29,089 nt of DNA, from the NCBI GenBank assembly GCA_016202725.1, contig JACQOD010000055.1, positions 1 to 29,089 of the forward strand, read 5' to 3'. The stretch comes from Candidatus Aenigmatarchaeota archaeon (GTDB taxonomy: Archaea > Aenigmatarchaeota > Aenigmatarchaeia > QMZP01). Positions 5,263 to 29,089 of this stretch are shown here, piece after piece. The position numbers and the translations under genes are program-made. Every line of letters begins with the position of its first letter. Position 1 is the first letter of the stretch. Below the pieces are notes generated by a model. That model saw only the letters and a program-made list of their open reading frames with translations. It was not told where the DNA came from and did not search any database.

Positions 5263-6069
5263 ATGAGTACGGTGGTCTTCGTGGGGACCCTGGCGGGTTT
5301 GCTGCTCAGCCTGGGCTGGCTCCTGGGGGGCCTGGACGGCCTGGCCGGCGGCGCTGTCCTGAGCATCCTCCTGCTGGGCTCCGGGAGGGCCTACGGCCAG
5401 CAGGCCCTGCTCAAGCTCACGCACGCGCGCCCCCTCCAGGACCCGCGGGTCGAGAGGATGCTGGTGAAGATCGCCTACGAGGCGAAGATCCTCGTCCCCC
5501 GCCTTTACCTGGCGCCCATGGCGATCCAGAACGCCTTCTCCACGGGCAGTTCCGAGGGGAATGCGGGGATCATCGTGTCCGAGGGCCTGCTCGCGCTCCC
5601 GGATGACGAACTCGCCGCCGTGCTGGCCCACGAGGTCGCCCACATCAAGCACGGGGACATGGCCGTCTACACCCTGGCGGCCTTCCTGATGGCGCCCCTG
5701 TCCCGCGCGGCAGCGTGGGGGCACCTGCAGCTCAACGAGGACCGCCGCCGCAACTTCCTGGGCATCCTGGTGATGGCGCCCGCTGCGGCGGTGGCATCGT
5801 TCTTCGTCCGCATGGCGACCGAGCGCGAGCGGGAGTACCGGGCCGACTGGACCGGCGCCCTCCTCCTGCGGAAGCCCGAGGCCATGGCGTCGGCGGTCCG
5901 CATGCTCACCGCCTCCGCGCGCCAGCGTCCTGTCCGCGGCGTTCCTTCGACCTCGCACCTCTGGTTCGTCAACCCCTTCCCCACCAGCTGGCTGCACAGC
6001 CTGTTCACCGCCCATCCGGAGGCGGAGCGGCGCATCGAGCGCCTGGAAGTCCTCGCGCCGCTGGGGTAG
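5263..6069 (+). CDS. htpX: Zinc metalloprotease HtpX (M48)
   Basis: NAFSTG, AHEVAH, REYRAD and HP..E.RI motifs; N-terminal TM segments. Confidence 0.9.
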   Translation: MSTVVFVGTLAGLLLSLGWLLGGLDGLAGGAVLSILLLGSGRAYGQQALLKLTHARPLQDPRVERMLVKIAYEAKILVPRLYLAPMAIQNAFSTGSSEGNAGIIVSEGLLALPDDELAAVLAHEVAHIKHGDMAVYTLAAFLMAPLSRAAAWGHLQLNEDRRRNFLGILVMAPAAAVASFFVRMATEREREYRADWTGALLLRKPEAMASAVRMLTASARQRPVRGVPSTSHLWFVNPFPTSWLHSLFTAHPEAERRIERLEVLAPLG

Positions 6070-14968: not shown

Positions 14969-15072
14969 GTACGTGTTTAACTGCACAACGCGTGCTATCG
15001 GTTTCCAAAAAGGAGGGAACAATGAAATCAGCAGCAATAGGACTTGTGGTGTGCAATGAGCTAAACACGTAC
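14969..15072 (+). mobile_element. MITE family 1 copy A (104 bp, 14-bp TIR, 8-bp TSD AACCAATT)
   Basis: GTACGTGTTTAACT...AGCTAAACACGTAC; AACCAATT at 14961-68 and 15073-80. Confidence 0.93.
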
Positions 15073-15613: not shown

Positions 15614-15710
15614 GTGCGTGTGCAGCTCGTTGCACATCGCTGGCTCTCCGCTGATGTCATTGTTCCCTCTTTTGGAAACGATAGCATGCGTTGTGCAGCT
15701 ACACACGCAC
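15614..15710 (-). mobile_element. MITE family 1 copy B (97 bp, TSD GAAAAAAG)
   Basis: TIR GTGCGTGTG(C/T)AGCT; GAAAAAAG at 15606-13 and 15711-18; core shared with copy A. Confidence 0.92.
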
Positions 15711-15725
15711 GAAAAAAGGAAGGCC

Positions 15726-17291: not shown

Positions 17292-17395
17292 GCATGTGTG
17301 TAGCCCATTGCCCGCCGCAGGTTCTCTTGCTTCTGATTTCATTGTTCCCTCCGTGTTGGAAACCGATAGCATGCGTCTGGCAGCTAAACACGCAC
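17292..17395 (-). mobile_element. MITE family 1 copy C (104 bp, no TSD)
   Basis: Same TIRs and GCTATCGGTTTCC..GGAGGGAACAATG core; flanks CGCAGGAG / AAACCTCC differ. Confidence 0.88.
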
Positions 17396-19264: not shown

Positions 19265-19368
19265 GTACGTGTTTAGCTGCCAAACGCATGCTATCGGTTT
19301 CCAACAAGGAGGGAACAATGAGATCACATGCAAGAGAACCTGCGGTGTTCGATGAGCTAAACACATAC
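19265..19368 (+). mobile_element. MITE family 1 copy D (104 bp, TSD GATAGGCG)
   Basis: GTACGTGTTTAGCT...AGCTAAACACATAC; GATAGGCG at 19257-64 and 19369-76. Confidence 0.93.
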
Positions 19369-20458: not shown

Positions 20459-20641
20459 GTATGTGTTTAGGTACCCTCAATATGCTCGCTGTGTATCGAT
20501 TTCCCCGGATGCGAGCCGAAACACGTCAAAAAGGTCATGTGGCCTAAGTATGCCGATTTTCAATGTAACTGATTCGCAGAGTGGAAGAATTGCCAAAAGT
20601 GTGTGTCCAACTGCTAACGGTTAGACGAGCTAAACACATAC
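20459..20641 (+). mobile_element. MITE family 1 long subfamily F (183 bp, no TSD)
   Basis: GTATGTGTTTAG...CTAAACACATAC terminal inverted repeats; left end matches the reconstructed element at 28886. Confidence 0.75.
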
Positions 20642-27336: not shown

Positions 27337-28869
27337 ATGGCACTCCAGCAAGCCTACCTTGCGTTCCTGCAGAAGCTCCCCGGCGTCCGGGGGCCCACGG
27401 GCAAGCTCACCTTCAAGGAGAAGATGAAGTGGACCGGGCTCATCCTGGTCCTCTACTTCCTGCTGGCGCAGCTCATCGTCTACGGGGTCGCCCCCTCCAG
27501 CCTCGAGCAGCTCCGGTTCCTGGAGATCCTTCTCGGCTCCTCGTTCGGCTCGCTGATGTCGCTCGGCATCGGCCCGCTCGTGACCGCGTCCATCATCCTC
27601 CAGCTGCTGGTCGGGTCGAAGATCCTCTCCTGGAACCTGCAGACCACGGAGGGGAAGCAGATGTTCCAGGGGACCCAGAAGCTCCTGGGCATCCTGTTCT
27701 CCTTCATGGAGGCCGTCATCTTCGTCAGCATGGGGGCTGTCCCTGCGGCCTCGCCCAGCCTGGCAGGGCTGGTCATGCTCCAGCTCGCCGCGGGCGGGAT
27801 CCTGGTCATCTTCCTGGATGAAGTGATCTCCAAGTGGGGCTTCGGTTCCGGGATCGGCCTGTTCATCGTGGCGGGCGTGGCCAAGTCCATGCTCGTCCGG
27901 GCCTTCAACCCCCTGACCCAGGCCGGCCTCTTCCCCGGCGCGGGCGCTCCTCCGGCAGGCCTGATTCCCTTCGCCGTGACTGCCGTGGCAACGGGGGAGC
28001 TGCTGAACGCCTTCCTGGCCCTGCTGCCGGTGATGGCCACCATTGTGGTCTTTTTCCTGGTCACGTACGCGAACGCCATCAAGGTGGAGATCCCGCTGGC
28101 ATTCGGCAACATACGGGGCTTCGGGAGGCGGTGGCCGCTGAAGTTCTTCTACACCTCGAACATCCCGGTCATCCTGGTGGCGGCCCTGCTCGCGAACATC
28201 AACCTCATGGGCACCATGCTCGCCAACAACGGCAACCCCCTGCTCGGGGCGTTCGACGCGCAGGGCAATCCCACGGGAGGGCTGGTCTTCTTCCTCACGC
28301 CTCCGCGCACGGAGGCCCTGGGCGGGCTCATGGTGAGCGCGGGGATCTTCGCCCTCCTGGGGGCGATCCTGGCCTCGTTCACGGGGAAGGGGAAGTTCTC
28401 GCTGGTGGCGATCTTCGCCGCGCTCGGGGGGGCCGTCTGGGTGCTCGCCGCTGCGGGGATGGGGATCACCTCCCTGACCTTCATCCCGGCGATCGACATC
28501 GCCCGGGCCATCACCTACACCCTCGTCCTCACCGGCGGGGCGGTCCTCTTCTCGGTCTTCTGGATGTCCACGTCGGGGATGGATTCCCGCTCGGTCGCGG
28601 ACCAGATCTCCGGCATCGGGATGCAGATCCCCGGCTACCGCCGGGATCCGCGGATCATGGAGACGGTCCTGAGCCGCTACATCCCCGGGCTCACGGTCCT
28701 GGGGGGAGCTGCGGTGGGCCTCCTGGCCGCGTACGCGGACTTCACCAACGCGATCGGGACCGGCACCGGGATCCTGCTTGCCACGCTCATCATCTTCCAG
28801 CTCTACGAGCAGCTGGCCTCCCAGCACCTGGACGACATGCACCCCGGCCTGCGGCGCTTCTTCGAGTAG
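27337..28869 (+). CDS. secY: Preprotein translocase SecY (Sec61alpha-like)
   Basis: GSLM.LGIGPLVTA.I..QLL, KWG.GSG..LFI, YTSNIP, QIPG.R, GTG.GILLA motifs. Confidence 0.97.
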   Translation: MALQQAYLAFLQKLPGVRGPTGKLTFKEKMKWTGLILVLYFLLAQLIVYGVAPSSLEQLRFLEILLGSSFGSLMSLGIGPLVTASIILQLLVGSKILSWNLQTTEGKQMFQGTQKLLGILFSFMEAVIFVSMGAVPAASPSLAGLVMLQLAAGGILVIFLDEVISKWGFGSGIGLFIVAGVAKSMLVRAFNPLTQAGLFPGAGAPPAGLIPFAVTAVATGELLNAFLALLPVMATIVVFFLVTYANAIKVEIPLAFGNIRGFGRRWPLKFFYTSNIPVILVAALLANINLMGTMLANNGNPLLGAFDAQGNPTGGLVFFLTPPRTEALGGLMVSAGIFALLGAILASFTGKGKFSLVAIFAALGGAVWVLAAAGMGITSLTFIPAIDIARAITYTLVLTGGAVLFSVFWMSTSGMDSRSVADQISGIGMQIPGYRRDPRIMETVLSRYIPGLTVLGGAAVGLLAAYADFTNAIGTGTGILLATLIIFQLYEQLASQHLDDMHPGLRRFFE

Positions 28870-28885
28870 GGGGGATACTATCCCC

Positions 28886-29089
28886 GTACGTGTTTACGCC
28901 CCGCGCCGCCAGAACCCTGCGGGGCCTTGGCCCGCAGATGAATGGCGGCAAGCACTTCTGAGCGCGGGGCCGGGGTCGCGGGGATGGATCGCCATCACGG
29001 CCGCAGGAATGCTGTCCACTGGACGAGTTCAGTCGGCGTCGAACGCCCGCCGCTGTAGCGGCGGGTAGTTTACGTACCCTCAATATGCC
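28886..29089 (+). mobile_element. Family 1 subfamily F MITE (left part), interrupted and truncated by the window end
   Basis: Removing 28898-29073 gives GTACGTGTTTACGTACCCTCAATATGC, 25/27 identical to 20459-20485. Confidence 0.78.
28898..29073 (+). mobile_element. 176-bp IS200/IS605-like non-autonomous element (PATE / orphan TnpB right-end RNA candidate)
   Basis: Inserted 3' of TTTAC and ends in TTTAC; no TIRs; right end GAACGCCCGCCGCTGTAGCGGCGGGTAGTTTAC has a subterminal hairpin; strongly self-complementary interior. Confidence 0.65.

Follow-up and report, generated by a model that had tools for sequence, protein, structure and literature searches.

The window analysed here, a stretch of 29,089 nucleotides, is the entire contig C27 of G000, an archaeal MAG from a groundwater metagenome that comprises 985 kb in 115 contigs, is 75% complete and has a G+C content of 63%. 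The size of the host genome is about 1.3 Mb, and genomes in the same order range from 0.5 to 1.9 Mb. All public runs containing the locus are DNA only and derive from groundwater metagenome material. At the right-hand end of the contig, secY is followed by the left terminus of an F-type MITE, and this terminus is split by a 176-bp insert (Table 1). The secY stop codon lies 16 nt 5′ of the MITE terminus, the insert begins 28 nt past that stop codon and has the same orientation as secY, and the contig stops at 29089, inside the interrupted MITE.

This layout had been proposed from the letters alone, and all of its parts were confirmed when the region was re-read. The insert has no terminal inverted repeats, its start (GCCCCGCGCC) and its end (GGGTAGTTTAC) being no inverted copies of each other, and it finishes in the hairpin CCCGCCGCT-GT-AGCGGCGGG followed by TAGTTTAC (29066-29073). 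The 15 nt on its 3′ side, GTACCCTCAATATGC, recur exactly at another place in the window, where they are preceded by GTATGTGTTTAG and thus by TTTAG, as had been reported. Since the 10 uninterrupted F-type copies of the genome read straight through the corresponding position as GTA(T/C)GTGTTTAG|GTACCCTCAATATGC or close variants, the insert is placed exactly between MITE positions 12 and 13.

Table 1. Features at the insertion locus and at the related uninterrupted MITE copy (positions in the window)
Feature	Position	Strand	Basis
secY	27337..28869	+	ORF list; protein atlas (archaeal SecY)
F-type MITE, left inverted-repeat terminus, first 12 nt, GTACGTGTTTAC	28886..28897	+	alignment with 10 uninterrupted F-type copies
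Target motif of the insert (TAM), TTTAC	28893-28897	+	last 5 nt of the 12-nt terminus; motif tally
Gene-less mini-element, 176 bp, very probably an IS200-type PATE	28898..29073	+	blastn copies; covariance-model matches
Left-end module, long imperfect hairpin	28898..28970	+	folds; homology to the left ends of L070, G055:C17 and G017:C21; compensatory change in the same-genus copy
Left outer stem	28898-28911 pairs with 28943-28970	+	folds
GAAC 5′ of the left inner hairpin	28912-28915	+	
Left inner hairpin	28917-28937	+	folds
GATGAA 3′ of the left inner hairpin	28937-28942	+	
Variable middle with small hairpins, subfamily-dependent	28971..29037	+	alignments
Right-end module	29038..29073	+	fold, pairing counts
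GAAC, then hairpin (29046-29065), then TAGTTTAC	29041-29044	+	
Element-encoded cleavage motif (TEM), TTTAC	29069-29073	+	
Rest of the split F-type MITE, its positions 13-28, GTACCCTCAATATGCC	29074..29089	+	alignment with uninterrupted copies
Uninterrupted F-type MITE copy (paralogous empty site)	20459..20641	+	blastn and alignment
TTTAG, then the 15-nt match, within the uninterrupted copy	20466-20470, 20471-20485	+	

Copies, flanks and copy number of the mini-element

Using the 176 bp as a query against the whole of G000, a search that the sequence-only reading had proposed, we retrieved by blastn 22 full-length copies with 75 to 95% identity, together with partial ones, many of which lie at contig ends. 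A covariance model of the right 101 nt gave 39 matches in the 985-kb assembly, and 12 of the 230 contig ends of the assembly fall within a copy of the mini-element. The 22 full-length copies start with GCCCCGCG and end with GGGTAGTTTAC, and the mini-element has a G+C content of 70%. Its ends are nearly invariant, the left one over about 50 nt and the right one over about 40 nt, and its middle exists in at least three unrelated versions.

The left flank was found to be T(T/G)TA(G/C) in 22 of 24 copies. Counted by position from −5 to −1 in these 24 flanks, the bases were T (22), T (16), G (6) or C (2), T (22), A (22), and G (15) or C (7), and the most frequent pentamers among the 24 to 25 flanks were TTTAG (9), TTTAC (6) and TGTAG (4). 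On the other side, TTTAC terminates 24 of the 30 right ends of the family. No target duplication was present in any of the 22 full-length copies, the left and right flanks being unrelated, and the ordinary 7-bp duplications from varied targets that the sequence-only reading had named as contrary evidence were accordingly not seen.

The window copy taken by itself could be read as an ordinary DDE-type MITE with a 6-bp duplication, as GTTTAC flanks GCCCC...GGGTA on both sides. This duplication was rejected, since the other 21 full-length copies keep the right-hand GTTTAC while their left flanks differ (for example, TTTTAG, CTGTAC, GTCTAG and GTGCAG) and are unrelated to the right ones. Because the right end is constant whatever stands on the left, the two GTTTAC motifs of the window copy are a coincidence of target motif and end motif. 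Terminal inverted repeats are absent as well, and a DDE-type origin is hardly credible.

The genome of the same genus (G001) contains a single copy with 82% identity, inserted after TTTAC and just past the 3′ end of a gene, and neither a MITE nor a PATE is found downstream of its secY. Within one genus, copy number therefore ranges from 1 to at least 39, and the expansion of the mini-element is lineage-specific. The presence of dozens of copies in an archaeon with a genome of about 1.3 Mb, against one in a genome of the same genus, is of modest interest in its own right.

Word depth was determined across 28867-29082 for the public contigs of run X1, the best-matching run, which come from the source sample. 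On secY and unique flank the depth was 10.3, whereas the summed depth reached about 1,800 at the left end, about 1,000 at the right end and about 120 to 450 in the variable middle. The true copy number is probably well above the assembled one, because the summed depth of the ends far exceeds that of the unique flank. These data suggested an order of magnitude of 100 copies per genome equivalent, a figure that other organisms in the sample may have raised.

In a second subfamily, the same ends enclose an unrelated middle of about 75 nt; its copies were found at C111:656-810 (L051), at C56:4416-4584 (L052) and at C64:~5366-5469 (L053), the last copy seemingly without the usual left end. In two further copies, C109:3412-3586 (L054) and C50:677-846 (L055), the whole 73-nt left-end module is present as the exact reverse complement while the remainder keeps its orientation. 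In L054 and L055 the palindromic left-end module has been flipped, which would expose the left hairpin on the wrong strand.

Terminal hairpins and tnpA-only relatives

The insert is highly structured, with a predicted RNA fold of −98.5 kcal/mol (z −2.7) and a DNA fold with a z score of −2.9. The left inner hairpin lies 19 nt inside the boundary and the right hairpin 8 nt inside the end, and the two differ in sequence. The pairing was found to be conserved beyond the bases themselves. Both hairpins are changed in the same-genus copy with their pairing preserved, and one pair of the right hairpin occurs as CG, AU and GC in the family and its autonomous relatives. Overall, 98.7% of the cells of the right hairpin were paired, versus 36 to 52% when the partner strand was slid.

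At the right end, the (G/A)AAC located 5′ of the hairpin forms base pairs with GTTT, the first four bases of the terminal GTTTAC, and in two copies AAAC...GTTT is replaced by ACAC...GTGT. Across relatives, a base pair joining the GAAC region to the cleavage motif appears as GC, GU or AU, and it is G-C in the relatives that end in TTCAG. At the left end, the flank change from TTTAG to TGTAG was not mirrored in GAAC among the family copies compared. Such variation of end motif and hairpin foot is a natural source of information on cleavage-site reading by Y1 transposases.

Homologous ends were identified in autonomous elements. Two genomes of the same taxonomic family carry elements of about 690 bp (G017:C21 and G055:C17) in which a Y1 transposase of 154 to 157 aa is the sole gene; both are located 3′ of TTTAG and end in GGCGGGTAGTT(T/C)AG. 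A high-GC element with tnpA as its only gene, on the ENA metagenome contig L070, also follows TTTAG. The TnpAs of all three (~150 aa) match PF01797 with E values of 1e-23 to 1e-25, and the three elements have in common a left end of the form GAACCC-hairpin-GATGAA and a right end of the form hairpin-GGGTAGTT(T/C)A(G/C). As in the mini-element, the left and right hairpins of the tnpA-only relatives differ in sequence.

L070 was reached by ranking 120 TnpA homologues by amino-acid composition, and this ranking for a high-GC TnpA yielded the tnpA-only L070 and L071 and not the exact parent. L070 aligned with the insert over about 53 nt at the left end and 43 nt at the right. Its left end has the same 14-nt spacing between cleavage site and GAACCC, a compensated inner hairpin, GATGAA and the outer stem. 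The middle of the insert (~65 to 70 nt), compared with both strands of the L070 interior, did not score above shuffled sequence. Scans of genome_contigs and metagenome_contigs revealed no full-length parent of the exact family, and exact patterns of the family right end and left end gave 0 matches in both collections. When the scan was repeated with a left-end core of 19 nt, about 175 loci were retrieved, all of them chance matches in high-GC bacteria except L113, a locus that repeats the left end of L070.

Thus, because its ends are homologous to those of elements carrying only a Y1 tnpA and its hairpins show compensatory changes, the insert is very probably a non-autonomous, protein-less PATE of the IS200 group within the IS200/IS605 family, and on sequence grounds it appears to be a deletion-type, gene-less derivative of an IS200-group element. 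The family assignment made in the sequence-only reading is upheld by the insertion at a motif without duplication, by the compensated subterminal hairpins and by the homology of the ends to Y1-tnpA elements. Of the defining IS200/IS605 features that were tested, the junctions without inverted repeats or duplication, the oriented insertion at a motif, the subterminal hairpins and the homologous ends are present, covarying pairing of the cleavage motif was observed at the right end, and a resident tnpA is lacking. Y1_Tnp (PF01797) was found neither in G000, by a Pfam-based six-frame search plus tblastn of this 75%-complete MAG, nor in the same-genus MAG (G001) by either approach. This absence weighs little, since the assembly is incomplete and broken at repeats, and the mobilizing enzyme is hypothetical in G000 because its gene was not found there. 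The IS200/IS605 relatives expected earlier do exist, as tnpA-only and tnpB-bearing elements in related genomes, whereas no tnpA or tnpB is assembled in G000 or its congener.

IS608 recognizes its cleavage site through base pairing with nucleotides 5′ of the hairpin foot, and the TnpA mechanism of IS608 and ISDra2 has been described (Barabas 2008; Guynet 2008; He 2015). By analogy with these two elements, a TnpA acting in trans would bind the two subterminal hairpins of the insert, and the insert keeps left and right hairpin modules of the kind that a Y1 (HUH) TnpA recognizes on single-stranded DNA. Cleavage would occur on the left 3′ of the flanking T(T/G)TA(G/C) and on the right 3′ of the element's own TTTAC, with each cleavage site presented through pairing with the (G/A)AAC just 5′ of a hairpin. 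The strand would then be excised as a circle and inserted 3′ of another T(T/G)TA(G/C), the target not being duplicated. In this way the window copy would have landed on the TTTA(G/C) at the end of the 12-nt terminal repeat in an F-type MITE directly 3′ of secY. We infer the trans-acting enzyme, this chemistry and any present or recent activity of the element. When contigs from four public groundwater and freshwater runs were compared with the locus, none carried a joint skipping the insert (an excision junction or empty orthologous site), and the assembly contains no right-end-to-left-end junction and no tandem copy.

Comparison with known element classes

PATEs of the IS200/IS605 family were defined in Haloquadratum walsbyi (PMC3119063), and they have also been seen in Geobacillus stearothermophilus (PMC10055086). 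The mini-element conforms to the published definition (PMC3119063). Like PATEs, it has no terminal inverted repeats, palindromes near both ends and no target duplication; it is too short to encode a protein, is multicopy, has ends related to those of IS605-type elements and inserts at a motif of 4 to 6 nt. The kind of element is therefore already known, and what we describe is a PATE of the IS200 group with an identified type of parent. Many described PATEs are derived from IS1341-type or tnpB elements, often with an omega-RNA, whereas the ends here match the tnpA-only IS200 group, and the host differs too, being a small-genome groundwater archaeon. Given the origin of the family in the tnpA-only IS200 group, IS605-like mini-elements should not all be taken for orphan guide RNAs.

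The relatives of the mini-element resemble the IS200 group in their length of about 700 bp and in their tnpA, which encodes a Y1 HUH enzyme of about 150 aa, and the insert differs from IS200 elements in having lost tnpA. As in IS608 and ISDra2, the hairpins are subterminal (~19 nt inside on the left and ~8 nt on the right) and the left end is preceded by the target; at the right end, the cleavage motif can pair with the nucleotides before the hairpin, as it does in IS608. In contrast to IS608, the two hairpins are not alike in sequence, and the target is T(T/G)TA(G/C), where IS608 uses TTAC and ISDra2 TTGAT.

Elements of the IS91/ISCR/Helitron type also insert beside a short motif without duplication and have a subterminal hairpin at the 3′ end. 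A non-autonomous rolling-circle element of this type would fit the lack of inverted ends and of a duplication, the 3′ hairpin 8 nt from the end and the fixed 5-nt target. However, both ends of the insert are homologous to ends of elements encoding Y1_Tnp (PF01797, ~150 aa) alone, and its left hairpin and the pairing of the GAAC region with the cleavage motif fit the IS608 scheme. No Y2 HUH Rep-like transposase was found between homologous ends, the autonomous relatives encoding Y1_Tnp only. A rolling-circle origin is accordingly very improbable.

The family could also be regarded as domesticated repeats similar to bacterial REP/BIME-RAYT systems, in which case the hairpin modules would have been kept for terminating transcription or stabilizing mRNAs 3′ of genes such as secY. 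The resemblance lies in multicopy intergenic hairpin repeats related to IS200-type Y1 enzymes, and some databases name relatives of the matching TnpA RayT. The copies are highly structured, as the RNA and DNA fold scores given above indicate, and they are intergenic, the window copy following the secY stop and the same-genus copy the 3′ end of a gene. However, a REP consists of one hairpin of about 35 nt, and REPs usually occur in pairs close to a resident rayT gene, whereas the units here are of about 155 to 180 nt, every copy keeps a left plus a right end with target and end motifs, as a mobile unit does, and no RAYT, tnpA or other Y1 gene is assembled. Copies located inside other mobile elements argue for neutral landing sites over function, and the spread of copy number within one genus also speaks against domestication. 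We consider this reading unlikely, and an IS200-group PATE remains the preferred explanation.

MITE termini and the guide-RNA question

Almost half of the insertions lie in MITE terminal repeats. GTG precedes T(T/G)TA(G/C) in 11 of the 24 left flanks, and this combination is the end of a 12-nt repeat common to several MITE types. The same GTG context was found at 5.6% of such pentamers assembly-wide, an excess of about 8-fold with a binomial p of about 2e-8, which overstates the significance because the copies are not independent events. The insertions involve at least three types of MITE interior, namely F, H and one starting with TGGTTCGGG. About 11 of the roughly 70 copies of the H-type MITE are filled, and about 60 are uninterrupted and, like the 10 uninterrupted F-type copies, represent paralogous empty sites.

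The autonomous element of L070 likewise follows GTACGTTTTTAG, the same kind of site. On that contig (L070:1-2183), tnpA occupies 1606-2064, the element stands directly 3′ of IS3-like genes (HTH_Tnp_1, rve), and the sequence on its 3′ side may be the remainder of a short MITE with a related terminal repeat.

Possible causes of the terminus preference are tolerance of insertions in the junk DNA of a compact genome, an extended TnpA preference, single-strandedness of MITE ends, composite spread or guide-directed homing; the position of the L070 element at the same kind of site hints at a target preference. The preference for MITE termini is a mildly new point and is open to study with recombinant TnpA. 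The H. walsbyi table (PMC3119063) has no PATE in a MITE.

The sequence-only reading had interpreted the right part of the insert as an orphan omega-RNA scaffold and the 3′ flank as its guide, by which a TnpB or TldR acting in trans would be directed against the MITE family; with the copies adjacent to TTTA(G/C) as targets, such a system could drive homing into MITE termini. The geometry does fit and resembles that of TnpB omega-RNA and TldR guides, with the motif on the left and a candidate guide beginning at the right boundary, and the last 11 nt are akin to GGGTAGTTCAC. In line with this, TnpB-bearing IS605 elements of the same taxonomic family (G022 and G017:C3) and of the same order (G026) terminate in a hairpin followed by GGGTAGTTCAC, a motif that contains the stop codon of tnpB. 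The 16-nt flank of the window copy has nine motif-adjacent matches in the assembly with at most 2 mismatches, and flanks in H-type MITEs have up to twelve. The excess of insertions at MITE termini could also be counted in favour of this interpretation. Transcription might be supplied by read-through from secY, and the use of PATE-borne omega-RNAs in trans is an idea already in print (PMC10055086).

These observations are open to simpler explanations. The flank matches other MITE copies because the element inserted into a multicopy MITE, and the 15-nt match is neither due to chance nor special, because both sites belong to one MITE family. The claim that the TTTAG copy is TAM-mismatched was wrong, since TTTAG is the commonest target motif of the family and the copy at 20466-20485 is thus not motif-mismatched. 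The enrichment at MITE termini can be explained by selection against insertion into genes, by TnpA target preference or by composite amplification.

The components of a guide-RNA system were not detected. Searches for PF07282 and PF01385 gave 0 matches in G000 and in its congener G001, and tblastn with the TnpBs of relatives gave none. When the last 300 nt of four tnpB elements were compared with G000 by blastn and nhmmer, no match was obtained, and between the insert and the tnpB elements only the last 11 nt (GGGTAGTTTAC) are similar. All matches of the 101-nt right-end model outside the genus were right ends of tnpA-only elements, and none fell at a tnpB locus in the 91 genomes searched from the order. 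No high-GC TnpB candidate was present in the best 120 of more than 5,500 matches ranked by composition. An Rfam scan of 28000-29089 (E up to 10) yielded nothing relevant, a negative without weight because the right ends of true tnpB elements were also unmatched.

The mini-element itself also differs from TnpB omega-RNA modules. It has no nuclease gene and no scaffold homology past the terminal hairpin, and the region upstream of that hairpin, the expected place of a scaffold, varies within the family and exists in at least three unrelated versions. Scaffolds of TnpB are roughly 100 nt long or more, whereas the homology to autonomous elements ends about 45 nt from the right end, which is too short for them. 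The element contains no A/T run of 5 or more, and thus there is no TATA-like box and no promoter box. An orphan omega-RNA for a trans-acting TnpB or TldR is therefore improbable, given that no nuclease gene and no scaffold homology were found and that the middle varies between subfamilies, and this reading survives only because the assembly is incomplete, the MAG lacking 25% of the genome and repeats being under-assembled. Slightly less probable again is a specific version in which an unassembled TnpB- or TldR-like protein would be guided by read-through transcripts, the flank after each right end being the spacer. Elements residing in one MITE copy would then target dozens of uninterrupted MITE termini next to TTTA(G/C) for cleavage or binding, with copying into these termini by repair in a gene-drive-like manner. 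If true, such guide-directed repair copying would amount to one mobile element spreading through another, and it would explain the 8-fold excess at termini.

Next to the preferred IS200-group PATE, several small-element features of these genomes were noted. At C39:3330-3593 (minus strand, G000), a copy of the mini-element is itself split by an H-type MITE with the 8-bp duplication GTCGGCGT, so nesting between the two element classes goes both ways. The H-type MITE, about 107 bp in length, gave 77 blastn matches in 985 kb, and copies in the window include those at 14971-15058, 15631-15713, 17304-17392 and 19267-19348. Counting also the F-type MITE (about 11 copies) and further types, the burden of small mobile elements is heavy for a genome of about 1.3 Mb, and the mini-element and several MITE families break the assembly.

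Two observations concern elements in other genomes. In L023 (G022:C22), at about 1940-2040, the left end of an IS605-type element whose tnpA and tnpB are divergent lies only a few bases away from where a tRNA gene ends (Rfam tRNA, 58.7 bits). In L060 (G049:C41), a 138-aa ORF of unknown function, encoded on the opposite strand and repeating a peptide of the neighbouring gene, is followed at about 1120-1150 by a right-end-like hairpin and GGGTAGTTCAG; this may represent an IS200-type end with cargo or an insertion into a duplicated gene.
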